A DNA stretch of 64,000 nt from Chloroflexota bacterium (GTDB lineage Bacteria; Chloroflexota; Dehalococcoidia; Bin125), in assembly GCA_028874365.1 (NCBI GenBank), contig JAPPJZ010000062.1, positions 52,611-116,610 on the forward strand. The letters run 5' to 3'. Positions 18,565-52,050 of this stretch are shown here, in pieces. The notes beneath the pieces were generated by a model. The model saw nothing but the letters and a program-made list of their open reading frames with translations. It searched no databases and was not told the DNA's origin. Each line of letters opens with the position of its first letter. Within the stretch, counting starts at the first letter, position 1. The translations under genes and the position numbers were made by a program.

Positions 18565-18600
18565 CTCCCTCTCCCTCTGGGAGAGGGTTGGGGTGAGGGC
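18565..18600. repeat. family-B hairpin repeat (CTCCCTCTCCC-tctg-GGAGAGGGttGGGGTGAGGGC)
   Basis: Recurs at 19430, 33176, 50281 and, in reverse orientation, at 51914 and 52003. Confidence 0.7.
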
Positions 18601-18691
18601 CGCCCCTTCCGACAACCACGATACACCAACCACGAACACCCTTTCTGTATAGTGACCAGAACGTACGTTCACGCTCAGAGAGGGTCCGACC

Positions 18692-19387
18692 ATGCACATC
18701 CCACCCAACCAACGTCGACGCGCCATCCAGGGCCACTACCTCCGCCAACGCGGCCACTCGCTGCGCCAGATCGCCGAACAGCAGAACCTCTGCCCCGACA
18801 TCGTCCGCTCCGACCTCAAGCTCGTCGAAACCCATTGGAGCTCGATCGCCGCCGCGGCTGCCGACGACCTTCTGCTCGAATCGCTGCAGCTCCTCAGGAT
18901 CAGGCTCTCGCTCGCCATCAAGAACGACGATGTCTCCAACAACGCCGAACGCCTCACCCCGGTCGAGTACCTCCGTGCACGCGATGCCCAGGAAACCGGG
19001 CTCAACAACCTCGCCCGCGAAATCCGCCGCACCGCCCAGGACGTCCACCGACGAGCCGCACAGCGCGCCGACCAACCCGACCTCTACGACGATGTACCGC
19101 AAGAACCAGGCGAAAACACTCCAGAACTAGTCAAAACTGACCACCCCGATCGCACGATCTCCAGTCCAGAGCAGAAGATCGTCGAATCTAAGCCCCAGCA
19201 AGAAAAAATTCCCGCGGAAACCGCCCACCTGCCCGATCAGCCCGAGTATGACCCTCTGATCGAGGAGGTCTTCAACGAATTCCCCCACCTCAGAGGCCAG
19301 TCAACCGAGCAAATCCTCGCCTTCCTCGACCAACTCACTGATCCCGAAGCATCGGAGCCCGCTGTCTACGCCGAGGCCGCCGGCTAG
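18692..19387 (+). CDS. hypothetical protein with N-terminal HTH; C-terminal half compositionally atypical (lower GC, E/P/Q-rich)
   Basis: RRRAIQGHYLRQRGHSLRQIAEQQNL resembles sigma-70 region 4 or terminase small-subunit HTH; gene is bracketed by repeat clusters. Confidence 0.5.
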   Translation: MHIPPNQRRRAIQGHYLRQRGHSLRQIAEQQNLCPDIVRSDLKLVETHWSSIAAAAADDLLLESLQLLRIRLSLAIKNDDVSNNAERLTPVEYLRARDAQETGLNNLAREIRRTAQDVHRRAAQRADQPDLYDDVPQEPGENTPELVKTDHPDRTISSPEQKIVESKPQQEKIPAETAHLPDQPEYDPLIEEVFNEFPHLRGQSTEQILAFLDQLTDPEASEPAVYAEAAG

Positions 19388-19429
19388 GCCCCCAAAGGCC
19401 CCTCTCTTCTGGTTCCCGCTCCTTCCGGT

Positions 19430-19508
19430 CCCCTCTCCCTCTGGGAGAGGGTTAGAGCCTGCCCCCGCGAAGGCGGGGGGTGAGGGTCCCGCGAAGCCCG
19501 CCCCGCAC
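19430..19508. repeat. composite B+A hairpin repeat
   Basis: CCCTCTCCCTCTGGGAGAGGG + CCCCCGCgaagGCGGGGGG + GGGTCCCGCgaagCCCGCCCC. Confidence 0.65.
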
Positions 19509-19627
19509 CTGATTCCCGATGCCCCGCACTCGATGCGGGGCCCAGACCTCGATGTTCGAGCGCAGCGTCGGCGTCCCGCTCGCCCCTACGCTCTGCCGCA
19601 GGAGCCATCACCATCTACGATCCCACC

Positions 19628-21292
19628 ATGACCCAGCGGATCATCGTCATCGGTGGCGGACCCGGGGGCTCCACCGCCGCCACCCTCCTCGCCCGACAGG
19701 GCTTCGATGTCACCCTCTTCGAGCGCGAAGTCTTCCCCCGCGAACACGTCGGTGAGTCACTCCTGCCCGCCTCGATCCCCATCCTCGAAACCCTCGGCGT
19801 CATCGACGAGATCGAGGCCGCCGGTTTCACTCCCAAGTACGGAGCGACGATGGTCTGGGGGCGAGAACCGGAGCCCTGGTCCTGGCATTTCGCCGAGACC
19901 AACGCCAGCTATCCCCACGCCTACCAGGTCTGGCGCCCGACCTTCGACCAGATGCTCCTCCGCAATGCCGAGCGCAACGGCGTATCGGTCCACGAGGGTT
20001 GCCGAGTCGTCGATGTCAGCCTCGATGAGACCGACCCCTCATCGGTGACGGTGGAATCAGCAAACGGAGAGACTCAAGCCCACGAAGCCGAATGGATCGT
20101 CGACGCCAGCGGCCAGAACGGCTTCCTCGCTCGCCGACTCGACCTACGCGTCAACGACGAGTTCTTTCGCAACCTGGCCGTCTACAGCTACTTCCGCGGC
20201 GCCGATCGCCTCCCTGAACCCGACACGGGCAACATCTTCATCGAGGCCTACGAACACGGCTGGTCCTGGGCCATCCCCCTGCCCGACGACGTCATGTCCG
20301 TCGGAGTCGTCGTCGACGCGGCCTGGGGAGGCTCCAAACTCAACGAAGCGCCGACCGAGGAGTTCTACCGCCGGCAGCTCTCGATGACCCAGCGCACCGC
20401 CGCGATGCTCAGGCCGTCCCGGATGATCGACGACCCGCGCGTCATCCGCGACTGGTCGTACACCTCGCAACGCCTCGTCGGCGACGGCTACATCCTCGTC
20501 GGCGACGCCGCCTGCTTTATCGACCCGCTCTTCTCCTCCGGCGTCCACCTGGCGCTGTCTTCGGCGGTCCTCGCCTCGGCCTACGTGACGTCGGCCCTGA
20601 GAGATCCCGAAATGCGCGAGCCCGCCGCCGAGGTCTACACCCAGCTCTACATGCAGCAGTACCACCAGTTCCGCGAGATGGCCGCCCTCTTCTACGCGTC
20701 CAATCGCACCTCCGACTCCTACTTCTGGGAGGCCCGGCGCATCACGCAAAGCGCGGACGATGTCTCACCGCGCGAAGCCTTTATCGCCGCCGTCGCCGGA
20801 CAACCGCCCCAAGGCTACGAGCGCGTCGTCCTCGAACGAGGCGAAGCGCCCCCCGACTTCGTCGAAGGGGTCGCCGCCGTCGAAACCGAGCGCGCCGAGC
20901 GCGACGCCGAAATGACCAAATTAATCGATTCTGCCTGGCCCGATCGCAGCCCAATGCTCGACGCCGTCCCCGCGCTCGCTCCGGGCGTCACGCTGGCCCG
21001 CAAGCCCGTCGTCGGCGATGGACAGTTCGAGTGGGGAGCCGTGATCTCCTCGTCGACGCGCCCCCAGGGAGCCCCAATCTCGACGCTGATCGCCGCCCTC
21101 GCCACCCGAATCGACGGCCAGCGGCCGGTCCGTGTTCTCCTCGACGACCTCCTCGAAGGAGTCGAACCCCGCCAGCGAGCCCAACTCCTCCCCGGCCTCC
21201 TCACCGCCCTCCGCGTCCTCTACGTCGACGGAATGATCGCACGTTGGACTCCTGCGCAAGACCCTCAAGTACCTTCCTCCCCCCGAGAGTGA
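19628..21292 (+). CDS. FAD-dependent halogenase (tryptophan-halogenase family) with ~140-aa C-terminal extension
   Basis: GGGPGGS dinucleotide motif, halogenase signature GWSWAIPL (WxWxIP), GDAACFIDPLFSSGVH; 554 aa. Confidence 0.8.
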   Translation: MTQRIIVIGGGPGGSTAATLLARQGFDVTLFEREVFPREHVGESLLPASIPILETLGVIDEIEAAGFTPKYGATMVWGREPEPWSWHFAETNASYPHAYQVWRPTFDQMLLRNAERNGVSVHEGCRVVDVSLDETDPSSVTVESANGETQAHEAEWIVDASGQNGFLARRLDLRVNDEFFRNLAVYSYFRGADRLPEPDTGNIFIEAYEHGWSWAIPLPDDVMSVGVVVDAAWGGSKLNEAPTEEFYRRQLSMTQRTAAMLRPSRMIDDPRVIRDWSYTSQRLVGDGYILVGDAACFIDPLFSSGVHLALSSAVLASAYVTSALRDPEMREPAAEVYTQLYMQQYHQFREMAALFYASNRTSDSYFWEARRITQSADDVSPREAFIAAVAGQPPQGYERVVLERGEAPPDFVEGVAAVETERAERDAEMTKLIDSAWPDRSPMLDAVPALAPGVTLARKPVVGDGQFEWGAVISSSTRPQGAPISTLIAALATRIDGQRPVRVLLDDLLEGVEPRQRAQLLPGLLTALRVLYVDGMIARWTPAQDPQVPSSPRE

Positions 21293-21300
21293 GGGCCAAT

Positions 21301-21356
21301 CCCCTCTCCCCCCGCCGCAGGCGGGGGGAGATGTCCCGTAGGGACAGAGGGGGGCA
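21301..21356. repeat. family-A nested-hairpin repeat
   Basis: CCCCTCTCCCCCCGC-cgcag-GCGGGGGGAGATG-tcccgtaggga-CAGAGGGGGGCAC. Confidence 0.75.
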
Positions 21357-21412
21357 CGCCGCGCGCCAACCCTTAGAATCGTGCCAACCTCGGTTGTAAG
21401 GCGGGCAGCGAC

Positions 21413-21964
21413 ATGACCACAGCCAAATCCCGGACTTCGGGCCGAATCGAACAACTCAACGTCTCACCTGGCGGCGTGCCCAAGCGTGCCGTCCCCGAAG
21501 CCGTCGTCAACGAGTACGGCCTCACCCAGGACCGACAGCGCGACCGCCGCCACCACGGCGGCACCGAGCGCGCCGTCTGCCTGTTCTCTGCCGAAATCCT
21601 CGACAGTCTCCGCGCCGACGGCCATCAGATCGGCCCCGGCACAACCGGCGAGAATGTGACCATACGCGGCATCGACTGGAAAAAGCTCGTCCCCGGCTCG
21701 CGCGTTCACCTCGGCGAACAGGTCATCGTGGAGGTCACCTCCTACGCCGCCCCCTGCCGGATCATCGCCCACTGCTTCCGCGACGGCGACTTCAACCGCA
21801 TCAACCAGGCCACGCATCCAGGACGTTCCCGCCTCTACGCACGCGTCGTCCGGCAGGGGACCATGTACCCGGGCGACGACGTCACAATCGAGGCTGACTC
21901 GGCCGCCGACCGAGGCGCTCGACTACAACCCAAAACCACACGTTGGCGTCCGCCCTCGAGCTGA
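21413..21964 (+). CDS. MOSC-domain protein (YiiM-like)
   Basis: GENVTIRGID and surrounding beta-barrel pattern; 183 aa. Confidence 0.7.
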   Translation: MTTAKSRTSGRIEQLNVSPGGVPKRAVPEAVVNEYGLTQDRQRDRRHHGGTERAVCLFSAEILDSLRADGHQIGPGTTGENVTIRGIDWKKLVPGSRVHLGEQVIVEVTSYAAPCRIIAHCFRDGDFNRINQATHPGRSRLYARVVRQGTMYPGDDVTIEADSAADRGARLQPKTTRWRPPSS

Positions 21965-22096
21965 TTTCCTCCCCCCGGAATCCGTAGCGCCGTTGCAATC
22001 AATGGCGCCTGCGCAGTGATACTCTGCGCGCACGCGAATACGAATGTCCAATCGAGAGAACGCGACTCGCCAGGTCTTTGGAACGGGAGCAGAACG

Positions 22097-22702
22097 ATGA
22101 CCACCGAAGCATCCGCCCGCCAGGCCGCCCTGATCGCACGGCGATACCCCAGTCGCGCCACCCTACGCGGCGGCCGCGAGATCGACATGCGCCTGATGGC
22201 CCCCGCCGACAAGGCCCGCTTCCTCGCCTTCGCCCGCTCGCTCTCACGCGACGACTTGCTCTACCTGCCCTGGGACATCACCGACGAAGGCGTGGTTGAC
22301 CGCTGGCTGGAGAACATCGCCGAACATCGCACCACTACCGTCCTTGCCGTGGACTCCGGAGACATCGTCGGCGAGGCGTCGTTGGTCCACAACGAAGCGG
22401 GCTGGACCGACCACATCGGAGAAATCCGCGTCACCGTCAACTCCCAGATCCGCGGCCAGGGTCTCGGCCGATTCCTGGCCGAGGAGATCTTCGCCATCGC
22501 CGACTCCATCGGCCTCGAGCGCATCTCCGCCCGCATGACCCACGATCAGCTCAGCGCGCAGGCCGTGTTCGAGTCTCTCGGCTTCCAGGCCGTCGCGACC
22601 CTGCCCGGCTGGGTCATGGACCGCAGCGGCCGTCTCCGCGACCTCGTCGTCATGGCCTACGACCTCCGCGCCCGAGGCGCTCCCACCTCCGCCCAACGCT
22701 GA
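22097..22702 (+). CDS. GNAT-family N-acetyltransferase
   Basis: Acetyl-CoA pocket IRGQGLGRFL; start MTTEAS at 22097 with GGGAGC SD. Confidence 0.75.
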   Translation: MTTEASARQAALIARRYPSRATLRGGREIDMRLMAPADKARFLAFARSLSRDDLLYLPWDITDEGVVDRWLENIAEHRTTTVLAVDSGDIVGEASLVHNEAGWTDHIGEIRVTVNSQIRGQGLGRFLAEEIFAIADSIGLERISARMTHDQLSAQAVFESLGFQAVATLPGWVMDRSGRLRDLVVMAYDLRARGAPTSAQR

Positions 22703-22756
22703 AGCTTGTCGCTGCCGCTCTCCCTGCGCAGCGGGCGTTTCGCCGACCTCCCCGTT

Positions 22757-22807
22757 CCCCTCTCCCCCCGCGCAGCGGGGGGAGATGCCGAAGGCAGAGG
22801 GGGGCAC
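22757..22807. repeat. family-A nested-hairpin repeat (identical to copy at 38691)
   Basis: cccctctccccccgcgcagcggggggagatgccgaaggcagaggggggcac, 51/51 identical to 38691-38741. Confidence 0.8.
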
Positions 22808-22915
22808 ACCAACACGCGCTGATGCTGCGCTGTCCTCACAGGCGCCCGCCCGCCCCCACGCTTCCGCCATTGCACCTATCCTGTCGGGACAACCCATGGC
22901 ACGACAGGACCTCCG

Positions 22916-24283: not shown

Positions 24284-24379
24284 GGAGAACTGAAAACCCG
24301 CAAGCCGCCTGAGCGCAGCGCCCGCCGGTCGAGAGCACAGCGGGCCGCGGTCAGGCGGCGTGTCTGTGGTCGGGAAGCG

Positions 24380-31814: not shown

Positions 31815-31841
31815 TGTGGTAGCTCCAATCGCGTCTCGCTT

Positions 31842-31893
31842 CCTCCCCTCGCGTCAGCGGGGGGAGGTGTCCCGTAGGGACGGAGGGGGGCAC
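31842..31893. repeat. family-A nested-hairpin repeat
   Basis: cctcccctcgcgtcagcggggggaggtgtcccgtagggacggaggggggcac. Confidence 0.7.
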
Positions 31894-31977
31894 TGCCCGT
31901 GGACTTGTTGGCGTCGCGCCGCTCCTCGGCCGTCCCCCTCTGTCTTCTGCATCGCCCCGTACGGGCAGAATCCGAAC

Positions 31978-33141
31978 CTAGTTCGACAGCATCGTCTGCT
32001 TGAACGGGCGAACCTGCTCAAAATCGCCGACCACGATCTCTTCCGGCTCGACGCCCATCCACTGCTCGAGCATCGTGCCGTAGATCCCGCGGAAGTCGAC
32101 TGTGTGCTTCAAGTCCTCGCCGTTCAACCAGTCCTTCGGATCGATCGACGGGTACTCCGCGTAGAGACCGCCCTCGACGTGCTCGCCGATGATGAACGCG
32201 CCGCCCCCGGATCCGTGGTCGGTGCCCGAGCCGTTGTCCTTCATCCGTCGACCAAACTCCGTGAACACCAGGACGGCAACCTCTTCGGCCGCGTCGTGCT
32301 CGCGCAGGTCGGTCAGGAAGTCGTCAAGCGCGCCGGTCATGTCGCGCAGCAGCCCGGGGTGAACGGGCGGCTGATGGGAGTGTGTGTCGTAACCGATGTG
32401 GTTCGTATAGAAGACCCGAGCCCCCAGCCCCGCCGTGTGAATCCGAGCCACGTCGCGCAGCGCCTGCGCGATCGGGTTCGAGCCGTACTCGACTGACGAC
32501 TCGTACATGCCCGGAGCCGGGGCCAGCATGTCCGCGCCGGCCAACGAGTCGATCCCCGTCTGACGCAGGTAGTCCATGACCATCCCCGCGCCGATTGCCG
32601 GCGTGTACATCCGCTTGAAGATCTCGAGGTCGCGGTTACGGTCTTCTTCGGCCTGGATATCAGGCATCAGACCGTAGTTGTCGAGGTCGCCGACCGAGGT
32701 GGCCGTCACGCCCGCGGCGACCATCGCCCGCGGCAGACCTCGGCCGATGTTGATCCCGGTCAACGGGTTCTCCGACTGCGGGTCGAGCCGCTGGATCAGC
32801 TTCGCCACCCAACCTTCGGTCGAGATCCGGTCCGGCTCGCACGTGTGCAGGATGTCCATGCCGCGGAAGTGCGAGCGTGACGAGTTCGGATAGCCAATGC
32901 CCTGGATCACGGCGACGTCGCCGTTGTCGTACATCTTCTTCATCCGCTCGGCGGCCGGATTGAAGCCCAACTCATCGTTGATCGGCATGACCTCGTCCTG
33001 AGGAACGCCAACCAGCGGTCGCGCATCGTAGTAATGGCCCTGGTTGTACGGCACCAGGGTGTTCATGAAGTCGTTCCCGCCCGAAAGCTGGACGATGACC
33101 AGGACGGGATCCTTCTTTTCGCTGTGTCCGTTGCCGCTCAT
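31978..33141 (-). CDS. DUF1501 (sulfatase-like) protein
   Basis: VLVIVQLSGGNDFMNTLVPY and C-terminal GTDHGSGG motif; 387 aa. Confidence 0.85.
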   Translation of the reverse strand: MSGNGHSEKKDPVLVIVQLSGGNDFMNTLVPYNQGHYYDARPLVGVPQDEVMPINDELGFNPAAERMKKMYDNGDVAVIQGIGYPNSSRSHFRGMDILHTCEPDRISTEGWVAKLIQRLDPQSENPLTGINIGRGLPRAMVAAGVTATSVGDLDNYGLMPDIQAEEDRNRDLEIFKRMYTPAIGAGMVMDYLRQTGIDSLAGADMLAPAPGMYESSVEYGSNPIAQALRDVARIHTAGLGARVFYTNHIGYDTHSHQPPVHPGLLRDMTGALDDFLTDLREHDAAEEVAVLVFTEFGRRMKDNGSGTDHGSGGGAFIIGEHVEGGLYAEYPSIDPKDWLNGEDLKHTVDFRGIYGTMLEQWMGVEPEEIVVGDFEQVRPFKQTMLSN

Positions 33142-33175
33142 TAGCTTGTTCCGTTCCGTTGCTTGCGTTGGTCCG

Positions 33176-33210
33176 CTCTCCCCCTGGGAGAGGGATGGGG
33201 TGAGGGTTCC
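33176..33210. repeat. family-B hairpin repeat
   Basis: ctctccccctgggagagggatggggtgagggttccc. Confidence 0.65.
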
Positions 33211-34608
33211 CTATGCGAACTGGTACTCAGGTGACGCGATCACCAGCCGCAGCGCCTGGGCAGCGCGCTGGCCCGCTTCCTCGACCGCGTCGTCGCCGTC
33301 GAACGACAACTCGCCGCCCGCCGACGCCGCCTCGAGCAGCGCCGCTCGGGTGTTGTCCGAGACCTCCAGCGGTCCAGCGAAATCGAGTGTTGCGTTGACG
33401 AGCTCTTCGGGACTGCTCGCCCCGATCTCCTGCAGCCGACTGACCAGCTCCTGTACGCCTGGCGCAGACGTGTCGGAGACGAGCTTCGAGGCGAAGTTGA
33501 TCCGCTCCATCAGCGTGCCGCCGTCGATCCATTCCTTGCCCGTGTGCCAGCCTTCGACCGACGGTGGGTCCATCAGGCTCTGGCCCATCGCGCCCATCGT
33601 CATGTGCAGATTCCACATCTCGGCTTGCGGCACTCCGAGCTTGCCCGACAGCTTGTATGCGCCGGCCACCCATTCGGCCGGACACTTGACGCGCTCGTAA
33701 CGAGCCTCTTTGAACCACTCCGCGTTGAACAGCACGCGCATCACTGCGCGCAGGTCGCCGTTCGACTCCGCGAAGGCGGACGCAAGCTCGGCCACAGCCT
33801 CGGGATTGCCCGGGTCGGTCACCGACCAGGCCGACACGCCCGGCTCGTCCTTGACGAAGAAGTTGTACAGGTGTCGCCCGATGAAGCGGCCTGTCGCCGG
33901 CTGCTGGACGATGATGTCGATGATGTCCTCGCCGTTGAAATTGCCCGTGTGGCCGAGGAACTCCTTCTCCGAGTGATCGTGCAAATCGTCGCGATACACG
34001 AAGCGCGCCGGGTATCCGCCGTGCGGGTAGAGCGGAATCGGCTGCTCGAACGTCCAGCCGGTGAAGCTGTACGCCGCCGCCTTGATGTCGTCCTCGGTGT
34101 AGTTGCCCACACCCATCGAGAACAGCTCAAGCAGTTCGCGACCGTAGTTCTCGTTCGGGGCGCCGACAACCGACTCGCTGTTGTCCAACCAGAAGATCAT
34201 CAACGGGTCGCGCGACAGTTCCGTCAACAGCACGCGCATGTTGGCCAGACCGTGCTCGCGGAACATCTGGATATGCACCGGCATGGACGGTCCGTGCTCC
34301 GACTTGAACCAGGCCGTGGCGAAAACGTGGTGCCAGAACAGTGCCATCTTCTCGCGCAGCGGCGACTCCGAGTTGACCATCCAGTAGATCCAGCGGCCGC
34401 TCCACGGCCACGGTGTATCCGAATTGGCCAACGCCGGGAAGTAGCGGAAGACCAGGTCGTCGTCGTCCTCGGCCATCGTCGGATTGATCAGGTCCTCGAC
34501 AATGTCGGCGTATGGTCGCTTCGCTAGCTCGTCCAGTTCAGCGGGTGTCACGCCCGCCCCGGCGCGACGCATCAGGTGGGCGACCAGCGCTCGTTGGTCG
34601 TCTGACAT
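33211..34608 (-). CDS. DUF1800 protein (partner of DUF1501)
   Basis: Conserved FWHHVFATA... region; preferred start MSDDQRA at 34608 (GGAGAGG SD); alternative ATG at 34659. Confidence 0.75.
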   Translation of the reverse strand: MSDDQRALVAHLMRRAGAGVTPAELDELAKRPYADIVEDLINPTMAEDDDDLVFRYFPALANSDTPWPWSGRWIYWMVNSESPLREKMALFWHHVFATAWFKSEHGPSMPVHIQMFREHGLANMRVLLTELSRDPLMIFWLDNSESVVGAPNENYGRELLELFSMGVGNYTEDDIKAAAYSFTGWTFEQPIPLYPHGGYPARFVYRDDLHDHSEKEFLGHTGNFNGEDIIDIIVQQPATGRFIGRHLYNFFVKDEPGVSAWSVTDPGNPEAVAELASAFAESNGDLRAVMRVLFNAEWFKEARYERVKCPAEWVAGAYKLSGKLGVPQAEMWNLHMTMGAMGQSLMDPPSVEGWHTGKEWIDGGTLMERINFASKLVSDTSAPGVQELVSRLQEIGASSPEELVNATLDFAGPLEVSDNTRAALLEAASAGGELSFDGDDAVEEAGQRAAQALRLVIASPEYQFA

Positions 34609-34776: not shown

Positions 34777-34808
34777 GTCATGCCCGCTCTTGCCGCGGGT
34801 ATCTCGAC
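34777..34808. repeat. family-C hairpin repeat
   Basis: gtcatgcccgctcttgccgcgggtatctcg, 26/30 match to 18496-18525. Confidence 0.6.
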
Positions 34809-38615: not shown

Positions 38616-38690
38616 CTTGACCTCATTTCAGGTTCAGCATCGAGCGATGGCCAAATGATAGGCGAACCACGAATCGGCCGAATCTCCACT

Positions 38691-38742
38691 CCCCTCTCCC
38701 CCCGCGCAGCGGGGGGAGATGCCGAAGGCAGAGGGGGGCACT
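38691..38742. repeat. family-A nested-hairpin repeat (identical to 22757 copy)
   Basis: See 22757-22807. Confidence 0.8.
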
Positions 38743-38861
38743 CCAAGCCGTCGCTCTCCCGACCCGGGAACTATATCCCGCTTTACATCGTCTAGCTCCC
38801 TAACGGGGCGGCAGCCGGTCGTCAATCTGGCGCCCCGAGAACAGTCGGTCAGGAGGACCAC

Positions 38862-40721: not shown

Positions 40722-40750
40722 CACCCTCACTACCGCCATTCCCTTTCTAC

Positions 40751-40797
40751 CCCCGCCGGCAGGCGGGGGGAGATGTCACGAAGTGACAGAGGGGGCG
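40751..40797. repeat. family-A nested-hairpin repeat
   Basis: cccccgccggcaggcggggggagatgtcacgaagtgacagagggggcgc. Confidence 0.7.
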
Positions 40798-40885: not shown

Positions 40886-41212
40886 ATGCCCAACCCCTAC
40901 CACTTCCGAGCACGGATCGACCGAATCTGCCGGCGCGCCTTCGGCAACGGACCCGGCTACCTCCGCCTCAAGGCCCTCAACACTCTCGTCCGCGAACTCC
41001 ACGCCCCCAACGACCGAGCCCGGGCCAACCACCAGATGTATCTCGCCACCGACCCCTACGACGTCGCCCGCCACCAGCTCCGCTACCTCCACGACTCCGC
41101 CTCTCTTTCCTCTCTCCCCCCGCCGTCAGGCGGGGGGAGATGTCTCGTAGAGACAGAGGGGGGCCTCCCACAGGACCAACAACGACCCGACGAAGACGAC
41201 GACCCCTTGTAG
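40886..41212 (+). CDS. small conserved hypothetical protein (MPNPYHFR... family), paralog of 49854..50159; contains an in-frame family-A repeat
   Basis: About 45% identical over the first 73 aa to the minus-strand ORF at 50159; shared MPNP(Y/F)H(F/Y)R N-terminus and ...EDDDPL C-terminus; GGGAGC SD. Confidence 0.45.
   Translation: MPNPYHFRARIDRICRRAFGNGPGYLRLKALNTLVRELHAPNDRARANHQMYLATDPYDVARHQLRYLHDSASLSSLPPPSGGGRCLVETEGGLPQDQQRPDEDDDPL
41110..41166. repeat. family-A repeat embedded in frame in ORF 40886..41212
   Basis: cctctctccccccgccgtcaggcggggggagatgtctcgtagagacagaggggggcc, translated as SLSSLPPPSGGGRCLVETEGG. Confidence 0.7.
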
Positions 41213-43922: not shown

Positions 43923-45215
43923 CTACAACAACGCTTCGTAGACGCCCTTCTCGAAGTCGGTCTCCAGGTACGCGACGGGGTTGAACTGGTACATGAACAC
44001 GTGGGTGAAGAACAGTCCGGCGAGGTTCTCGGCCGGGTCAACGAAGAACCACGTGCCCGCGGCGCCGCCCCATCCGTATGTGCCGACACTGCCGGGATAC
44101 GCCGTGCCGGCGATCCGGTCGCGCACCGCGTATCCGAACCCGAATCCAAATCCGGGGCCGGCCAAATCGATCTCCGTTCCGCAGATCGCGCCGAGGTGGT
44201 TCGCGGTCATCAGCTCAATCGTCTTCCGACCGAGTACACGCACCCCGTCCAGTTCTCCGCCGTTGAGCAGCATCGCGGCGAAGCGCGTGTACGCCGCCGG
44301 CGTCATCAGCACGCCACCGTACAGTCCGTTGCCGGATATCTGCTGGCCCAGCGACTCGCGCACCTTGTGCGAGGTCTCGGGCCGCTCGACCGGATTGAGC
44401 GCGCCCTCCTCGGACCAGTGGTGATTGGTGACCAGTCGAGCGGCATCGCCAGGCGGACAGTAGAAGCCACAGCCCTCGACCCCCAGCGGTCCAAAGATCC
44501 GCTCCTGGAAGAGCTCGTCGAGGTTCTGCCCGGTCGCTCGTTCGAGCAGCAGGGTCAGGACATCGAAATCCGCCGCATACTCCCACGCCGCGCCGGGCTG
44601 CCGCGCGTTGGGGAGCTGCGCCATCTGCAGCACGCGTGTCTCCGCCGACACCGACGTATCGACAACGCCCGGGTTGGTGATCCCGAATTCGGTACCGCTC
44701 CAGGCCGGTTCGAGCAGCGGAAACATCCCCGACGGAATGTTGCCGAACGATGGCAAGCCCGATGTCATCGTCAGCAGATCGCGAATCGTGATCTGCCTGA
44801 CCATCGGCACCGTCTGGCCCATCAGCAAGCCCTGTCCACGGACCTTGTTGGGTGGATCGAACGGGGCCAAGACCTGGCGGTTCTCGAACTCCGGCAGCCA
44901 CTTCGTGATGGGCTCGTCAACGTAGAAGACGCCCTCCTCCTGCAGTTGCATCGTCAGCGCGGCCGTGACCGGCTTGGTCTGCGAGTACATACGGAACAGC
45001 GCGTCGATCGGCAGCGGATTCTTGCGTTCCGAATCCAGGTACCCGTGCGACGAGACGTGCGCGAGATGACCATGCCGAAGCAGAACCGTCACCACGCCGG
45101 GGACCTCGTCGTTCTCAACAGCTTGCGCCATGCGAGCGTCAACACGTGCCAGCCGCTCGGCGTCGATACCGAGCGAGGCAGGATCGGCGGCAGGAAGATT
45201 GGCAAAGTCGGACAT
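43923..45215 (-). CDS. beta-lactamase-family (class-C-like) serine hydrolase
   Basis: SQTK (SxxK) motif; start MSDFANLP at 45215 (track ORF extends to 45458). Confidence 0.75.
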   Translation of the reverse strand: MSDFANLPAADPASLGIDAERLARVDARMAQAVENDEVPGVVTVLLRHGHLAHVSSHGYLDSERKNPLPIDALFRMYSQTKPVTAALTMQLQEEGVFYVDEPITKWLPEFENRQVLAPFDPPNKVRGQGLLMGQTVPMVRQITIRDLLTMTSGLPSFGNIPSGMFPLLEPAWSGTEFGITNPGVVDTSVSAETRVLQMAQLPNARQPGAAWEYAADFDVLTLLLERATGQNLDELFQERIFGPLGVEGCGFYCPPGDAARLVTNHHWSEEGALNPVERPETSHKVRESLGQQISGNGLYGGVLMTPAAYTRFAAMLLNGGELDGVRVLGRKTIELMTANHLGAICGTEIDLAGPGFGFGFGYAVRDRIAGTAYPGSVGTYGWGGAAGTWFFVDPAENLAGLFFTHVFMYQFNPVAYLETDFEKGVYEALL

Positions 45216-45297
45216 GATCGGCTCCTTGCTGAAAGACTGGCCTGTCGAGGATAGGCGCTGGGATCGCGTAGTCTCGGCATGATCAAGGGAGGTCGGC

Positions 45298-46509
45298 ATG
45301 GCGTACGAGTATGACCGCAACATCCGCGACAGGGTGGCGGTGATCGGTGTCGGCGAGACGGAGTACACGAAGCACGGACGCATCGGGCGTCCGGAGTTCC
45401 GCCTCGCCCTCGAGGCCATCCTCGCCGCCTGCGCCGACGCAGGACTCGAACCACGCATGTTGGATGGCTTCTCCTCCTACTCCGCCGATCGCAACGATCC
45501 CAACCGGCTCTCGACGGCGCTCGATCTGCCCCACTACGCCTTCGCCTCGATGGTCTACGGCGGAGGTGGTGGAGGCGTCTGCGCGGCGATCGGCAACGCA
45601 GCCGCCGGCATCGTCGCCGGCTATGCCAACTTCGTCGTGGTCTACAGAGCCCTGGCGCAGGGCGAGTTCGGTCGCTTCGGCCAGTCACGCCGGGGCGGCC
45701 GGCTGCGAGGTCAGTACGCCTTCAATGTGCCCCAGGGCCTGATGTCGCCGGCACAGTTCCTGGCAATGAAGATGCAACGCCATATGTACGAGTACGGAAC
45801 TACGTCCGAACATCTGGGACACATCGCTGTCGCCGCGAACAAGCATGCGCAGAACAATCCCCGCGCGGTGATGAACGGACGGCCGATCACGCTGGAAGAT
45901 CATCAGAACTCCCGCATGATCGCCGACCCATATCGGCTCTACGACTGCTGCCTCGAGACCGATGGCGCAGCGGCAATGATCCTCACCACCGCGGAGATCG
46001 CCCGCGACTTCACCGACAAGCCGGTCTACCTGGCGGCTTCTGTGCAGGGCTCCGGCCATCGACAGGGCAACGTGGTGGATGGCTTCTGGCACGACGACTT
46101 CATGAGTTCCAACTACACGACGATGGTCGACCGGCTGTATTCGGCCGCAGGCATGGGCCCGGACGAGATCGACTGCGGTCAATTCTACGAGAACTTCACC
46201 GGCCAGGTGCTGACCTCGTTTGAGGACCACAAGTTCTGCGAGGTCGGCGAGGGCGGCCCCTTCTGCGAAGGCGGACGACTTGAGACGAAGCAGGTCGCCG
46301 AGCCCGGCGCACCGTACGCGGGCGAGTTCCCGATCAACACCTCCGGCGGCAATCTGTCCGAGGCATACACCCACGGATTCAATCTCGCCGTCGAAGCAAT
46401 CCGTCAGCTGCGAGGCGACTCGTCCAATCCGGTCGAAGGCGCGAGAACCTGCATTGTCGCGGCCGGTCCGGCGTCCGCGCCAATCTCGTCGGCGATCTTC
46501 CGCAACTGA
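45298..46509 (+). CDS. thiolase-like protein, SCP-x / lipid-transfer (Ltp) type
   Basis: Thiolase fold without the classic active-site Cys motif; GGGGGG loop; usual partner DUF35 lies nearby. Confidence 0.75.
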   Translation: MAYEYDRNIRDRVAVIGVGETEYTKHGRIGRPEFRLALEAILAACADAGLEPRMLDGFSSYSADRNDPNRLSTALDLPHYAFASMVYGGGGGGVCAAIGNAAAGIVAGYANFVVVYRALAQGEFGRFGQSRRGGRLRGQYAFNVPQGLMSPAQFLAMKMQRHMYEYGTTSEHLGHIAVAANKHAQNNPRAVMNGRPITLEDHQNSRMIADPYRLYDCCLETDGAAAMILTTAEIARDFTDKPVYLAASVQGSGHRQGNVVDGFWHDDFMSSNYTTMVDRLYSAAGMGPDEIDCGQFYENFTGQVLTSFEDHKFCEVGEGGPFCEGGRLETKQVAEPGAPYAGEFPINTSGGNLSEAYTHGFNLAVEAIRQLRGDSSNPVEGARTCIVAAGPASAPISSAIFRN

Positions 46510-46516
46510 GCCCGCG

Positions 46517-47551
46517 CTAGGAGAGCGCCCGCTTGATGCAGTGACTGGTCGGTAGCGAATGCTCTCCAGCCTCTCGCTGGGCGATCGCCTGCCCGAGCAT
46601 CTGCCCGATCTGATTCTGCAACTTGCGGGAACGCGTCCAGCCGATGAAGCTCTCCTGCATGATCGTCACCACATAGCGGGGTTGCGATCCGAGCCAGGGC
46701 GGAGCCAACCAGATGGCGGCGCTGTTCATCCGCACGAGGGCGCGCACCCTGCTCGCCTGTGACCGGAGCGGCGAGTCGCCGACTTCCTCTGCTTCTGCCT
46801 CGTCTTCGGCCCGCTGGAGGTCGCGTATGAGCAAGGCCGCGTCCTCGTAGTCGCGCGGGTTGATCTTTGCGATGGGATCGTCGTCCTCGGATTCGGGGAT
46901 CGTGAAGTTGCCGGTCTTGATCAGCGACTCCCAGCCGGGAAGCATGGGTTCGGGGATCGTTGCGCCCCAGCGGTGGTTGTCGACTACCTCGCGGAGCAGG
47001 TCGAAGCCATCGGCCCGCGCGTCGTGCGGGACGGACTCGGATCGCGCCAGCGCGGCGAAGAGCCGGGCCAGATGGATCGGCTCGGCCCGGCTGGCGCCCC
47101 AGCGGCTGCGATGGGTGAGTTCGATCAGTTCCGGAACGCCCCAGCGTTCGTAGTACTCGGTCAGTCCGGCCAGGCCGCCGATCATCGACAGCAAGGTGGT
47201 CACGTCGGGATTCTGCGACCAGGCGACCATGTAGAACAGGGCGTCACGTTGCAGCTTGGTCAGCTCCCTCCCCTCGTCGTACGCATCGCTGAGGATGGCC
47301 CAGGCGATGGGCGGCTTGATCACGCTATGCAGGGCGTATGGTCCCGAGTGGCCGCCGGTCCAGATCGTCTCGGTTTCCAGGTCATAGACCGCAGCGCCGA
47401 TCACGGCGTCAACGCTCAGCACTTGACGTTCGAATTCGTTCGAGAGGGCGCACAGCGGGGCGTCGGCCGAGGCCGGTCGGGGGACCGCGATCAAGATCAG
47501 GGCAGGGAGCATCAAGGCGGGCAACAGGGCGAGGGCGGGCAGTCGGCGCAT
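46517..47551 (-). CDS. secreted class-A-beta-lactamase-fold serine hydrolase
   Basis: Signal peptide; all three class-A motifs present: SVIK (SxxK), SQN (SDN-loop variant), KTG. Confidence 0.6.
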   Translation of the reverse strand: MRRLPALALLPALMLPALILIAVPRPASADAPLCALSNEFERQVLSVDAVIGAAVYDLETETIWTGGHSGPYALHSVIKPPIAWAILSDAYDEGRELTKLQRDALFYMVAWSQNPDVTTLLSMIGGLAGLTEYYERWGVPELIELTHRSRWGASRAEPIHLARLFAALARSESVPHDARADGFDLLREVVDNHRWGATIPEPMLPGWESLIKTGNFTIPESEDDDPIAKINPRDYEDAALLIRDLQRAEDEAEAEEVGDSPLRSQASRVRALVRMNSAAIWLAPPWLGSQPRYVVTIMQESFIGWTRSRKLQNQIGQMLGQAIAQREAGEHSLPTSHCIKRALS

Positions 47552-47594
47552 GCCGCGTCAGCGTACTAGGCAGACAACGCGTTACTCTCGCGCT

Positions 47595-48056
47595 ATGACG
47601 AGTTCGAGCCAGCCTGCGGAGTTCCTGGATGCCCCATACTTCCCGGACGGGATGAGCGTTCCGGACCCGGACGATGCGATCAACGGCGGTTACTTCGCCG
47701 CGGCCGCCGACAGGCGGCTCGTGGTTCAGCGCTGCGCCGACTGTGGCACTCGACAGTATCCGCCGGAGTTGAACTGCCATGCGTGCTACGGCTTCAACAT
47801 GGAGTGGGAAGAGTCGGTCGGGACCGGGACGGTCTGGTCGTGGGTCGAGGTCGTGCACCCTGCCCATCCGGCGTTGCGCGAGTTCGGGCCATACATGGTG
47901 GCGTTGGTCGAATTGGACGATATGCCCGAGATCAAGCTGATGGGCGCGGTGGTTGATGCTCCGCTGGGCGGGACGATGAAGATCGGCGCGCGGGTGCGTG
48001 TGGTCTTCGAGCGGACGGCGGACGACCTCGCACAACCACGCTGGCACATGGCATGA
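47595..48056 (+). CDS. DUF35 zinc-ribbon / OB-fold protein (thiolase partner)
   Basis: CADCGTRQYPPELNCHAC rubredoxin-like zinc ribbon followed by OB fold; start MTSSSQP. Confidence 0.75.
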   Translation: MTSSSQPAEFLDAPYFPDGMSVPDPDDAINGGYFAAAADRRLVVQRCADCGTRQYPPELNCHACYGFNMEWEESVGTGTVWSWVEVVHPAHPALREFGPYMVALVELDDMPEIKLMGAVVDAPLGGTMKIGARVRVVFERTADDLAQPRWHMA

Positions 48057-49753
48057 CGGCTCAGGTGCCCGCTGCTTCGACGGCGGCATCGACTTCTCGT
48101 CGGCGCTGGGTGATCCTGCTGGTTCTGGCCGGGTCGCAGATGCTCGTCCAGCTTGACGCCACGATCATCAACACGGCGCTGCCGGCGATCAAGCGGGCCT
48201 TCGAGATGTCGGAGGCGCAGTCGCTCTGGGTGGCCGACGCCTACATGGTGATATTCGGCGGCTTGCTGCTGCTCGCGGGGGCGCTCGGCGACCGTTTCGG
48301 CCGGCGCAAGATGCTGATCGCTGGCATGGCGATCTTCGTCGTGGCGTCGATCGCGGTGGCGTTCTCGCCAGACGCCAACTTCATGATTGTCGGACGCGGA
48401 TTGCAGGGGCTGGGCGGGGCGCTGGTGATCCCGCAGACACTGTCGATCCTGACCGCGGTGTTCCCGCGTGAAGAGCGCGGCCGTGCGATCGGCATCTGGG
48501 CGGGAGCGATGGGCTTCGGGATGGCGTTTGGACCGCTGGTGGGCGGCGTCCTGGTCGACCTTATTGGTTGGGCGGGCGTGTTCTGGGTTCCGGCGCCGAT
48601 CGCCGCGCTCTGCATGGCGGGTATGGCCGCCGTACCAGAGTCGCGTTCGCAGATGCATACCAAGCTTGATGTGCCGGGCGCGATCACCGGAACGATCGCG
48701 ATGGTTGCGATCGTCTTTGCGATCATCGAGGGCATTCAGAAGGGTTGGAGTGATCCGCTGATCGTGGGTTCGTTCGCGGTGGCGATCGTCTCGGCCGTGA
48801 TGTTCATCGTGATCGAGCGGCGCACCGACCAACCGTTGCTGCCGATGGCCTTCTTCAAGCAGCGAGACTTCACCGGCTCGATGGTTGGCATGTTCTTCAT
48901 CATGTTTGCCCTGATGGGCGTGATGTTCTACATGCCGCAGTTCTTCCAACTCGTGCAGGGCATGTCTGCCTCGGAGAGCGGCGCGCGGCTGATGCCGCTG
49001 GCGCTTGCGATGATGATCTTCGCACCGATCATGGCCAAGTTGCTGCCCAAGCTTGGACCACGATTCATGTTGTTCTGGGCGCCCGCCGTACACGGCGGCG
49101 GCGCACTGTTGTTGTTCAGCTTCATTCTCGACATCGACACGCCGTACTGGATGATTGGCCTGGGGATGGCGTTCCTGGGGATGGGCGGGGCGATGCATAT
49201 GCCGGCCACGACGGACACGGCGATGGCGTCGGTGCCGGTCGACCTGGCCGGGAAGGCGTCGGCGGTGAACAACGCCGGTCGGCAGTTGGGCGGGACGCTG
49301 GCGATCGCGATCCTCGGTTCGTTTGCGGCGGCGGTGTACTCCTCCGGGGTGACGTCTGGGCTGACGCCGCTTGGTATCGCCGAAGGATCGGTCGAGATCT
49401 TGGCGACCGGGATCGGCGCGGCGCAGCAGGTGTTTCCGACGCTTGATCAGAGTGTGCTCGGTCCGGCGCAACTCGTCCTGCGGGAGTCGTTCGTCGAGGC
49501 GATCCGGGACACGATGCGGTTCGGGATCGTGTTTGCGTTGATCTCGGGCATTGTGGGGTGGTTGCTGGTGCCGAAGCGTCAGCGTCAGACACAGATGCAG
49601 TGGGAGGGCGGCCAGCCTGTCGAGCAAGGGTCCGCGGCGGCCGCGATGCCAGCCGGTACCTCGAACGGGGCGGCCGCCAACGGGGCGCGTGAGTTCGCGC
49701 CCAGTGGCAGATCGGTCGTCCTGCAGCGGCCGCAGAAGTCGGGGTTTGGCTGA
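48053..49753 (+). CDS. MFS transporter, DHA2 (EmrB/QacA, 14-TM) family
   Basis: 14 hydrophobic segments; MFS motif A GxLxDRxGRR. Confidence 0.85.
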   Translation: MTAQVPAASTAASTSRRRWVILLVLAGSQMLVQLDATIINTALPAIKRAFEMSEAQSLWVADAYMVIFGGLLLLAGALGDRFGRRKMLIAGMAIFVVASIAVAFSPDANFMIVGRGLQGLGGALVIPQTLSILTAVFPREERGRAIGIWAGAMGFGMAFGPLVGGVLVDLIGWAGVFWVPAPIAALCMAGMAAVPESRSQMHTKLDVPGAITGTIAMVAIVFAIIEGIQKGWSDPLIVGSFAVAIVSAVMFIVIERRTDQPLLPMAFFKQRDFTGSMVGMFFIMFALMGVMFYMPQFFQLVQGMSASESGARLMPLALAMMIFAPIMAKLLPKLGPRFMLFWAPAVHGGGALLLFSFILDIDTPYWMIGLGMAFLGMGGAMHMPATTDTAMASVPVDLAGKASAVNNAGRQLGGTLAIAILGSFAAAVYSSGVTSGLTPLGIAEGSVEILATGIGAAQQVFPTLDQSVLGPAQLVLRESFVEAIRDTMRFGIVFALISGIVGWLLVPKRQRQTQMQWEGGQPVEQGSAAAAMPAGTSNGAAANGAREFAPSGRSVVLQRPQKSGFG

Positions 49754-49853
49754 GTTGATCATCCTTAGTCGATGGGGGAGGGCACGGCAGAGCCAAGGGT
49801 CGGCGTTCGGCGCTCCCTGAAAGAAAGAGCTGGCGAAAAAGAGAGGCGGCGGA

Positions 49854-50159
49854 CTACAAGGGGTCGTCGTCCTCCGCGGGTGGTTGTTCTTCCTGCAGGG
49901 TGGCCCCGGCATGCGCGGGGGCGACTTCAACTAGCGCGGGGGAGGCGCGGTCGTAGAGGTCGCGGAGGAGGTGGCGGGCGTACTCGTAGGCGTCGACAGC
50001 GTTGAGCATTTGCTGGGCAATGGCGTAGCGGGGCCGGCCGGGGATGAGATCGCGAGCGAGCGCGTCAAGCGCCCGGAGTCGGATGTATGCAGGCTTGGGT
50101 CCATTGACGGTTCGCCAGAGCTGATTGACGTGGGTTCGGTAGTGGAATGGGTTGGGCAT
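49854..50159 (-). CDS. small conserved hypothetical protein (MPNPFHYR... family), paralog of 40886..41212
   Basis: See 40886..41212; GGAGGA SD. Confidence 0.45.
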   Translation of the reverse strand: MPNPFHYRTHVNQLWRTVNGPKPAYIRLRALDALARDLIPGRPRYAIAQQMLNAVDAYEYARHLLRDLYDRASPALVEVAPAHAGATLQEEQPPAEDDDPL

Positions 50160-50224
50160 GATCGGCTCCTCCGGAGACGATGGTATCAGAACGGGCGTGC
50201 GGTATAAGTATCGTGGTTGGCGGA

Positions 50225-50312
50225 GGCCCCCGCCTTCGCGGGGCCAGCACTCAATGGTTGGCGGAGGGGCAGGCTCTAGCCCTCTCTCCCTCGGAGAGGG
50301 GATCAGAGGGGC
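50225..50312. repeat. GGCCCCCGC-cttc-GCGGGGCC hairpin plus family-B repeat
   Basis: cctctctccctcggagaggggatcagagggg at 50281-50312. Confidence 0.6.
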
Positions 50313-51854
50313 TTAGTCCTCCATGAGTGATTCGGCGACGCGTTCGCCGATCATGATTGCGGTGAGGTTGGTGTTGCAGCTGACGATGTCGGGCATGATT
50401 GAGGCGTCAGCGACCCGGAGGTTGTCGACCTGGTGGACTCGACCTCGTTGATCGGTGACGGCGAGGGGGTCGGTCGCGGGGCCCATCCTGGCGGTTCCGC
50501 AGATGTGCCAGGTAGTCGAAGTGGTGCGGCGGATGTAGTCGGCGAGGGCGCTGTCGGATTCCATCACGGTGGCGCGCGGAGCGATGACGCGGTCAACGAA
50601 GGGCATGATCTCGTCGGAGTGCATGATCTGCCAGCAGAGACGGGCGCCGTCCATGAGGCGGCGCAGGTCCTCGGGATGGGACGCGTAGTTCATGTCGAGT
50701 TGGGGCTGCTCGGCCGGGTCGGTCGAGCGGAGGGTGACCGAGCCGCGCGAGTGGGGCCGCTGGATGACTGCGCCGATGCCGAAGGAGGGATGCTGGCGCG
50801 GCGCTTCGGTGAGGCCGCGTACCTGGTCCTCGTCCCAGATGGTTGAGATCGCGATCTGCATGTCGTTGAACTGGTCGGAGCCGGGCGCGGTGTAGCGCAC
50901 GCCGATCTCGGTGACGACATCGGGATCGTGGATCACCTCCGGCTTAGGGAATGCCTGCACGCCGGTGCCGAAGTGGTCGATCAGGTTCTCGCCGACGCCG
51001 GGCAGGGGTACGCGCTGGGTAATGCCGTGGGGCGAAAGCTTCTCGGCCGGGCCAATGCCGCTGCGCAGCAGGATTGCGGGCGAGACGGCCGACCCTGCCG
51101 ACACGCAAACCCGATCGCTTCGGATTGCTTCGCCATCGCTCAGCACGACGCCGTTGACGCGAGCGCCGGATTCGCCGTCGAAGTTAAGGCGGTCAACGAG
51201 CACGTCGTGACGGATGGTCAAGTTGTCGCGGTCGCGGATGGCGAGCAGGTAGGCGATGTTGGTAGATATGCGATTGCCGTTGCGGCGATTTCGCGGCCAG
51301 GGTCCGACCCCCGTGGCGTCGGGCAGGTTGTGATCCCAGACATCATCGAAGCCGCTGACTCGACAGGCGTCATAGAAGGCGCGTTGGAGGGGCTGCCAGT
51401 TGGCTTCGGGCTCGCGCTCGATCGGGATGGGACCTGACTGTCCGTGGAAGTCGCCGCCCTCGGGATCGGACTCGAGGCGTCGATACCAGGGGAGCACATC
51501 CTCGAAGGCCCAGTCGTCGCAGCCGAGGGCGACCCAGGACTCGAAGTCTCCGGGTACGCCGCGAAGCGCGATGGTGCCGTTGACGGCGGAGGAGCCGCCC
51601 ATGACCTTGCCGCGGTGCAGGGGGAACTCGCGGCCGTGGCGAGCGTTGGCCTTGAAGCCCCAGTCGTGATCGCGCCAGGAGACCCAGGGCTTGAGCAGGT
51701 CGCGGGGCATCTCTTCGACGCGGGTGTAGTCGGGTCCTGCTTCGAGCAGCAGCACGCGGCGGTTGGGGTCTTCGGAGAGTCGGGCGGCGATCACGGCTCC
51801 GGCGGATCCGGCGCCGATGATGATGTCGTCGTAGGTCGGCATGTCATCCTCCAC
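50313..51854 (-). CDS. GMC-family FAD oxidoreductase (choline-dehydrogenase-like)
   Basis: IIIGAGSAGAVIAARLSE N-terminus, GMC signatures. Confidence 0.85.
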   Translation of the reverse strand: MEDDMPTYDDIIIGAGSAGAVIAARLSEDPNRRVLLLEAGPDYTRVEEMPRDLLKPWVSWRDHDWGFKANARHGREFPLHRGKVMGGSSAVNGTIALRGVPGDFESWVALGCDDWAFEDVLPWYRRLESDPEGGDFHGQSGPIPIEREPEANWQPLQRAFYDACRVSGFDDVWDHNLPDATGVGPWPRNRRNGNRISTNIAYLLAIRDRDNLTIRHDVLVDRLNFDGESGARVNGVVLSDGEAIRSDRVCVSAGSAVSPAILLRSGIGPAEKLSPHGITQRVPLPGVGENLIDHFGTGVQAFPKPEVIHDPDVVTEIGVRYTAPGSDQFNDMQIAISTIWDEDQVRGLTEAPRQHPSFGIGAVIQRPHSRGSVTLRSTDPAEQPQLDMNYASHPEDLRRLMDGARLCWQIMHSDEIMPFVDRVIAPRATVMESDSALADYIRRTTSTTWHICGTARMGPATDPLAVTDQRGRVHQVDNLRVADASIMPDIVSCNTNLTAIMIGERVAESLMED

Positions 51855-51913
51855 CTGTCGGCAGAGGATAGGTCAGGGTTTGGAGTTCATCCGATAATGT
51901 GACGCAGAGCGGG

Positions 51914-52050
51914 ACCCTCACCCTAACCCTCTCCCACGGGGAGAGGGGATCTGGCGGGGGCTCACTCACACCTTCTCCCAATGAGAGCGGGTTCGCAGGG
52001 AGACCCTCACCCTAGCCCTCTCCCAGGGGAGAGGGGACCAGAGGGGAGCA
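51914..52050. repeat. two tandem family-B repeats in reverse orientation
   Basis: ccctcaccctaaccctctcccacggggagagggg and ccctcaccctagccctctcccaggggagagggg. Confidence 0.7.

Follow-up and report, generated by a model that had tools for sequence, protein, structure and literature searches.

BoxC repeats of Escherichia coli, also described as PIT or TMECO elements, have been known since the 1990s. In the literature on these elements (Bachellier et al.; Hoyne/Maher 2000; Holder et al. 2015, PMC4666352), the TMECO motif, some 35 bases long, is defined as CCCTCNCCC-N3-6-GGGNGAGGG-N3-GGGNGAGGG with one stem mismatch tolerated, and it was reported from 262 proteobacterial genomes (PMC4666352). The E. 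coli sequence forms a triplex in vitro, as published from circular dichroism (CD) and nuclear magnetic resonance (NMR) data, and published tests of the element found neither promoter nor terminator activity (cited in PMC4666352). We here analyzed a short repeat, family B, in a 64-kb stretch of contig JAPPJZ010000062.1 from a bacterium of the Dehalococcoidia (Chloroflexota). This stretch is called the window in the following and gives all coordinates; skew and gene tallies were extended to 80.3 kb of the contig, i.e., the window and its flanks. Its sequence makes family B the Chloroflexota equivalent of the BoxC/PIT/TMECO repeat of E. coli: a stand-alone unit of ~33–37 nt between genes, in which a C-rich 9-mer is followed by its Watson–Crick complement (G1) and by a mirror-image G-rich 9-mer (G2). 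It is hence new only as a member, in a new phylum, of an already known repeat family. We consider it probable that family B is a DNA-level repeat of triplex design, polarised in its orientation by replication and destabilising the spacers it occupies, and not a dedicated regulator.

With an nhmmer profile built from the copies, exactly six family B copies were recovered in the window, four full and two partial, at the places given in a preliminary description of this DNA; a decayed seventh can be added between the last two. Its reading of family B as a true repeat family outside coding sequence, with copies in both orientations, is likewise supported. Every copy is intergenic relative to the called genes, with (+) copies at 18–33 kb and (−) copies at 50–52 kb:

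18567–18599, + strand: B1, full copy, CCCTCTCCC-TCT-GGGAGAGGG-TTG-GGGTGAGGG, exact published TMECO pattern (nhmmer E = 3e-13); between a luciferase-like gene (16991–18286, +) and a 231-aa open reading frame (ORF; 18692–19387, +), in a spacer that also holds family C.
19431–19486, + strand: B2, long form ('B-long') with the C-rich block, its complement G1, TTAGAGCCT, a small hairpin GCCCCCGC-GAAG-GCGGGGG and the third block GGGTGAGGG (19478–19486); between the 231-aa ORF and a halogenase gene (19628–21292, +).
33174–33206, + strand: B3, full copy with one C-block mismatch (CGCTCTCCC); in the 69-nt spacer between DUF1800 (33211–34608, −) and DUF1501 (31978–33141, −), antisense to both.
~50225–50311, − strand: B4, decayed long form with hairpin CCCTCTCC-GA-GGGAGAGAGGG (50280–50300), CTAGAGCCTGCCCC, a 22-nt insertion and the small hairpin (50225–50245); the third block GGGTGAGGG is absent, and the copy starts 1 nt past the stop codon of the GMC oxidoreductase gene.
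51915–51947, − strand: B5, full copy, CCCTCTCCC-CGT-GGGAGAGGG-TTA-GGGTGAGGG, exact pattern (nhmmer E = 1e-14), in the GMC/CoA-transferase spacer; its loop 2, TTA, is that of the E. coli 'type A'.
51962–51993, − strand: B' (tentative), decayed CCGCTCTC-ATT-GGGAGAAGG-T-GTGAGTGAG, with a weak profile match (E = 1.7) and a poor predicted fold.
52004–52035, − strand: B6, full copy with a loop 1 of only 2 nt, CCCTCTCCC-CT-GGGAGAGGG-CTA-GGGTGAGGG; 37 nt separate its end from the CoA-transferase ATG (52073).

E-values of the four full copies (B1, B3, B5, B6) ranged from 1e-14 to 2e-12. The three-block pattern occurred three times in the window compared with 0.00 expected from 100 dinucleotide-preserving shuffles, and GGAGAGGG was found 14 times compared with 3.7 expected; we therefore rejected an origin by chance or low complexity. 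An origin as fragments of coding sequence was rejected as well, because the B copies are all intergenic, though some copies of the sister family A are translated. The block structure given in the preliminary description needs two corrections: B4 lacks GGGTGAGGG, and B2 carries about 22 extra bases between blocks 2 and 3. The array at 51915–52035 sits, as described, in the 230-nt spacer of the divergent genes for a GMC oxidoreductase (50313–51842, −) and a CoA-transferase (52073–54511, +). B' stands in register between B6 and B5, and the presumed tandem pair is hence made up of three direct copies with a period of ~44 nt. The recorded GMC oxidoreductase and DUF1800 genes use start codons other than those of the ORF versions used here.

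A full-text search with the two G-rich blocks retrieved Holder et al. 2015 (PMC4666352), the connection to BoxC/PIT/TMECO that the preliminary description had not recognised. When held against the TMECO definition, B1 and B5 were exact, B3 had one mismatch and B6 deviated solely by its 2-nt loop 1; B2, with a loop 2 of ~25 nt, and B4, without third block, fell outside. In blastn searches, the B5 copy matched 5409 of 5426 complete E. coli genomes at a median of 19 places per genome, and a copy from a related genome (L004:8162–8194) shared all 33 of its bases with E. coli copy no. 17. The strict motif is widespread, with at least 120 matches in viral contigs and at least 120 in metagenome contigs, on contigs with a G+C content of 38–75%. 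Among the matches listed, 289 distinct environmental copies showed flank conservation fading ~2 nt outside the core, from which it follows that the repeat unit is the core itself rather than a longer element with defined ends. As in the BoxC family, the copies are intergenic, multiple, found on either strand and without conserved flanks, and their loci are variable, with zero to three copies or other families in an orthologous spacer and one spacer wholly replaced, in a comparison made without matched control spacers. The window belongs to a 149-kb metagenomic scaffold, with RNase Y encoded nearby; its closest genomes are uncultured Dehalococcoidia with 70–89% CoA-transferase protein identity, several of them apparently sponge-derived metagenome-assembled genomes, as judged by their names. 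Set against the 262 proteobacterial genomes of the earlier report, this host extends the range of the motif.

Covariation analysis of the stems had been suggested as a check. In the lineage of the window it yielded nothing, i.e., in 18 aligned copies the stems were almost invariant with 0 compensatory changes, which has no bearing on the hairpin either way. As pair counting was thus uninformative, we scanned a viral collection for stem variants and left the third-block centre free (66–118 contigs per class). For TCT/AGA stems the third-block centre was [A/T]GA in 132 of 142 cases; here a direct repeat is uninformative, as AGA is its own mirror image. TCC/GGA stems went with [A/T]GG (115/148) and in no case with the direct repeat GGA. 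With CCT/AGG stems we found GG[A/T] in 54 of 85 cases plus 23 register-shifted equivalents, and the direct repeat AGG in three (chi-square = 509 for stem variant against third-block centre). The third block therefore mirrors G1, A being faced by A or T, and is neither a direct G1 repeat nor a second complement of the C-rich block. This mirror co-change across three stem variants is exactly what an antiparallel purine-motif third strand predicts (T-A*A/T and C-G*G triads). It indirectly suggests that the G-rich strand of family B could fold into a purine-motif intrastrand triplex, and it argues that triplex-forming potential, not mere G-richness, is the conserved feature.

The copy at 19430 had been described as a hybrid of family B and a second repeat, family A. 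As a description of the sequence this is fair, since the stem of the inserted hairpin in B2, CCCCCGC/GCGGGGG, is the main hairpin stem of family A. However, the same 56-nt long form stands in the orthologous GMC/CoA-transferase spacer of the relative L005, with a single loop change from GAAG to GTAG in the small hairpin, and in L004 a long-form copy with diverged stems directly follows the GMC stop codon, at the position orthologous to B4. Together with B4, these copies mark the 'hybrid' as a recurrent subfamily and not a one-off recombinant. The 5' arm that A and B were said to have in common is real but short: CCCTCTCC at 21302, 22758 and 38692, with weak profile matches that cover positions 4–19 only. 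The family A copies are:

22749–22812, + strand: representative copy, TCTCCCCCCGC-GCA-GCGGGGGGAGA, small hairpin TGCC-GAAG-GGCA, mirror block AGAGGGGGG.
21297–21353, + strand: family A copy.
31833–31889, + strand: family A copy.
38683–38746, + strand: family A copy.
40739–40795, + strand: family A copy.
41106–41162, + strand: family A copy.
58603–58648, − strand: family A copy.

Mirror co-change was found in family A too, where the 31833 copy and copies in L009 and L012 combine AGA to AGG in G1 with AGA to GGA in G2. Families A and B and the long form are united by one architecture, i.e., a C-rich block, its Watson–Crick complement and a mirror-image G-rich block. By sequence this is the known design of a putative intrastrand triplex, in which loop 2 tolerates a small hairpin, and the proposed modular system of freely interchangeable hairpins is not borne out.

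On the 80.3 kb of contig, 16 of 16 family A and B copies are oriented against the skew, the G-rich strand of the element being on whichever genome strand is locally C-rich (p = 3e-5). Negative GC skew, left of ~46 kb, goes with (+) copies and positive skew with (−) copies, and the skew is independent of gene orientation. A first count over the window and the loci of its Dehalococcoidia relatives gave 29 copies against the skew and 3 with it. In viral contigs the canonical motif lay against the skew 76 times and with it 27 times among the matches listed; the corresponding counts were 37 and 10 for the TCC variant and 42 and 8 for the CCT variant. Control G-rich 9-mers outside the elements behaved in the opposite way, with 59 against and 254 with the skew in viral contigs, 29 and 66 in metagenome contigs and 6 and 85 in Dehalococcoidia. 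Moreover, within the same plus-strand CoA-transferase gene a family A copy is (−) in L005, where the skew is +0.18, and (+) at the same site in L008, L012 and L018, at skews between −0.07 and −0.14; L014 and L015, whose skew is low, show either orientation. Orientation hence tracks GC skew and not the direction of transcription. The anti-skew orientation, not shared by ordinary G-rich words, would tie the elements to replication. At ~44500–47000 the GC skew switches sign, from ~−0.15 to ~+0.2, regardless of gene orientation, and a switch at the syntenic place is also seen in L004, L005 and L009; this region may be a replication origin.

Family B is conserved in related genomes, including orthologous spacers, and there its copies turn over. 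We compared the GMC/CoA-transferase spacer across 18 orthologous spacers. The window carries three B copies, and a strain with 98.4% DNA identity shares this array at 100%; the B4 sequence is likewise 100% identical in strain L002. L004 has two B copies, L006 and L007 have one each, L005 has a long-form copy and L009 a remnant; L012, L015, L016 and L019 carry family A instead, L010 and L021 carry family C, and five other relatives have no repeat. Nearly all relatives retain the 63 nt next to the GMC start codon (51843–51905, strand not assigned; GGATAGGTCAG / …CCTCCACCTGTCGGCAGAGGATAGGTCAG…CATCCGATAAYGTGACGC), which probably are the true regulatory (operator/promoter) and ribosome-binding region of the divergent pair. 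The repeats always insert just to the right of this segment. Elsewhere, B3 is kept with one loop change in three other strains that have an identical DUF1501 protein (~98% DNA identity), and the copies at L006:2792 and L008:548 are orthologous and thus older. The spacer after DUF1501 (31815–31977) is wholly non-homologous to its counterparts in L541 (8876–8961), L542 and L543 despite ~98% identical flanking DNA: the window holds a family A copy and an apparent second, decayed copy in the opposite orientation, the counterparts a degenerate B copy. The stop codon of the upstream gene differs here as well (TAG vs TAA).

How could such a pattern arise? The relevant molecule would be single-stranded DNA and not RNA, and the hairpin-plus-third-strand fold would arise only transiently, in replication or repair. 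Elements might persist or insert only with their structure-prone G-rich strand on the leading-strand template, either because fork-blocking structures are selected against on the lagging-strand template, which is exposed, or because of a strand-specific copying step at the fork. They may act as self-propagating or tolerated structural repeats that destabilise spacers. A wider proposal, which we regard as speculative and rather doubtful, is that B, its long form, A and perhaps the Rfam family whalefall-1 are one structure-defined repeat class across bacterial phyla, in which the triplex fold on single-stranded DNA is part of copying or retention at forks and no dedicated transposase is involved. 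If true, such a class would explain the near-identical E. coli and Chloroflexota cores, the strict anti-skew orientation, the cassette-like spacer swaps and the in-frame insertions into protein linkers.

Several observations count against a replication-polarised triplex repeat. The co-variation counts sequences and not independent events, and each stem variant could be one expanded subfamily. Single-strand DNA folding of the B copies returned the hairpin only (z-scores +0.4 to −2.9; for B2 two hairpins, −21.8 kcal/mol, z = −2.9), with tools that model neither triplexes nor quadruplexes. Holder et al. detected a triplex neither in double-stranded DNA nor by in-vivo dimethyl sulfate (DMS) footprinting (PMC4666352), and the G-rich strand in question is at the same time a perfect G-quadruplex motif (G3N3G3N3G3N3G3). 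Orientation bias was weak in metagenome contigs, where 28 copies lay against and 21 with the skew among the matches listed (p = 0.39). E. coli K-12 shows no clear bias, with 8 vs 5 single copies in the opposite sense in our tally of Table 1 of PMC4666352. Near the skew switch at ~46 kb no DnaA boxes were found and no dnaA gene is present; given this and the lack of bias in K-12, replication direction can only be an inference from the skew. Finally, if the structure were harmful, its retained forming potential would be unexplained.

One other explanation is a G-quadruplex/hairpin switch, in which the strand GGG-AGA-GGG-TTA-GGG-TGA-GGG competes with the C/G1 hairpin and the duplex and serves as a regulatory or polymerase-blocking signal, a role that has been put forward for these elements in E. 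coli. B1, B3, B5 and B6 match the canonical pattern (G3+N1-7G3+N1-7G3+N1-7G3+) with four G3 tracts joined by 3-nt loops; B2 and B4 fall outside it. For the E. coli elements (groups HPG1 and HPG2), Kaplan et al. (PMC5100583) presented CD evidence of a hairpin as well as a quadruplex. If exposed single strands tend to be kept free of the G-rich strand, this too would be compatible with a quadruplex. Mirror co-change is not predicted by it: the block centres would lie in loops, free to vary independently, and what is observed is co-variation with the duplex in mirror fashion; an alternative Watson–Crick hairpin likewise fails to predict a mirror third block. In addition, the long form would have a loop of ~25 nt, and family A, with two G6 runs split by a hairpin, is a poor quadruplex design and a perfect mirror repeat. 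We think a switch of this kind unlikely, and note that triplex and quadruplex are not mutually exclusive. Movement in trans, by a transposase with its gene elsewhere, as a non-autonomous mobile element, either like repetitive extragenic palindromes (REP) with their RAYT transposases or like miniature inverted-repeat transposable elements (MITEs), is to our mind equally improbable. Passage through single-stranded DNA at the fork, as in the IS200/IS605 family, would set the orientation, and a comparable orientation bias is known for single-strand transposons. Presence, absence and family swaps at orthologous sites, several copies per genome, the replication-linked bias and in-frame insertion of sister-family copies within genes would all fit. 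However, no conserved termini, terminal inverted repeats or target-site duplications were found flanking the copies, nor conserved flanks past ~2 nt; no REP-type GTAG head is present, and no Y1 or other transposase and no transposase Pfam domain occurred among gene calls covering ~78 of the 80 kb of contig. A very widely shared enzyme would be needed to account for cores so nearly identical in E. coli and Chloroflexota, and Holder et al. found no link to mobile elements (PMC4666352).

An element acting in RNA, be it an mRNA stabiliser, attenuator or terminator of the REP type or a small non-coding RNA related to whalefall-1, could draw on the 9-bp GC hairpin, which is strong in the predicted fold, and on the sense orientation of 8 of 10 A and B copies of the window in co-directional or intragenic contexts. 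Whalefall-1 (RF01762), graded a genuine RNA by Weinberg et al. (2010, PMC2864571), was the only Rfam similarity; its consensus (UCUCUCC..GGAGAGA, a 24-nt hairpin and AGGGUGAGG) shares the layout of the long form. Yet the scores stayed far below the gathering cutoff of 37 bits, with 21.8 for B6 (52003–52037, −), 17.0 for B1 (18565–18600, +) and 12.4 for B2 (19429–19487, +). At gathering thresholds the whole window yielded only a tRNA, and permissive searches added to these matches nothing except noise (microRNA and snoRNA models). No terminator-like site was found in 51700–52200, and none of the copies is followed by a T-run; both B3 and the family A copy at 31833 run antisense to the operon they lie in, and at the CoA-transferase linker orientation goes with skew and not with the gene. 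RNA reportedly does not form purine-motif third strands, and PIT elements showed neither terminator nor promoter activity (PMC4666352). A role in RNA thus appears distinctly improbable, and whalefall-1 may itself represent a DNA repeat of the BoxC type instead of a non-coding RNA. Least of all do we expect a cis-regulatory site, with the tandem array as operator/promoter module of the divergent GMC oxidoreductase and CoA-transferase operons, as the preliminary description had suggested for both operons. The array does lie in the divergent spacer, close to the CoA-transferase start codon, and is unchanged in the 98.4% identical strain. Against this, the same element flanks unrelated genes in every arrangement, and relatives with the same gene pair carry none, one or two copies or another family, with the adjacent 63 nt conserved. 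No sigma-70-type promoter was predicted in the divergent spacer, the sole promoter-like match being inside the GMC gene, and the E. coli tests were negative. We hence find no evidence for dedicated control of adjacent operons by family B, and return to the DNA-level triplex-design repeat as the preferred reading.

The surroundings of the copies are rich in further repeats. Upstream of the C and B copies before the 231-aa ORF, 18345–18420 holds degenerate C-rich units of ~17 nt (CGTCATTCCCC CCTTCTCC-like), and the 405-nt spacer with these units and B1 is a mosaic of at least three repeat types. The third family, C, has the form GTCATTCCCGCG-N4-6-CGCGGGAAT(C), with window copies at 18420–18443, 18496–18522 and 34777–34803, and stands as an inverted pair in the orthologous GMC/CoA-transferase spacer of L010 and L021 (~9750–9950). 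We take it to resemble the Neisseria ATTCCC-N8-GGGAAT (dRS3-type) repeats. Two small paralogous ORFs (49854–50159, −, 101 aa; 40886–41212, +, 108 aa) are 40% identical and both end in EDDDPL. Each is flanked by family A or B repeats, and an orthologue adjoins B copies in L004 and L005; with zero Pfam matches, the idea that they are mobilising genes was left unsupported. Sister family A can be translated within real proteins: the copy at 41106–41162, inside the ORF at 40886–41212, is read in frame (...LSSLPPPSGGGRCLVETEGG...) near the C-terminus of the 108-aa product. In L005, L012 and L015 (~11100–11220) one or two family A copies lie in the linker between the domains of the fused CoA-transferase, and the reading frames remain open (818, 837 and 847 aa); no repeat is present in the linker encoded by the window.

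Among described systems, REP/BIME repeats with RAYT genes (REPINs) resemble family B as short, GC-rich, intergenic palindromic repeats that form mosaics with other families and vary in presence between strains, whereas here the GTAG head, a RAYT gene in the available sequence and the inverted doublet are missing, and the third mirror block of family B has no REP counterpart. Whalefall-1 (RF01762, PMC2864571) shares the UCUCUCC/GGAGAGA stem, a second hairpin of ~24 nt and AGGGUGAGG, in the layout of B2; it differs in the sequence of the second hairpin and was described as a non-coding RNA solely from a whale-fall metagenome. HPG1 and HPG2 (Kaplan et al. 2016, PMC5100583) coincide with BoxC in E. 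coli locus and sequence, with a G3N3G3N3G3N3G3 strand preceded by its C-rich complement, but were read as quadruplexes, a reading that predicts no mirror co-variation and covers neither the long form nor family A.

BoxC itself, the counterpart of family B, differs in its host, E. coli and other Proteobacteria in contrast to Dehalococcoidia here, and in density, with 23 copies in the 4.6-Mb K-12 genome compared with ~8 copies per 80 kb. The direct tandem triple of the window contrasts with E. coli and environmental pairs, which are mostly inverted (23 inverted vs 2 direct). Further differences on the side of this lineage are a 5' flank of its own (CTGATC), the long form with its loop-2 hairpin and an orientation strictly against the skew that is unreported for E. 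coli. Common to both are the three-block sequence and its spacing, cores that are identical or nearly so, a strictly intergenic location in many copies and both orientations, variable loops including the TTA loop-2 type, and an association with hypervariable spacers but none with transposons. For annotation, family B repeats should be masked rather than read as regulators of adjacent genes, and the locus extends the BoxC-type element to Chloroflexota at high density.

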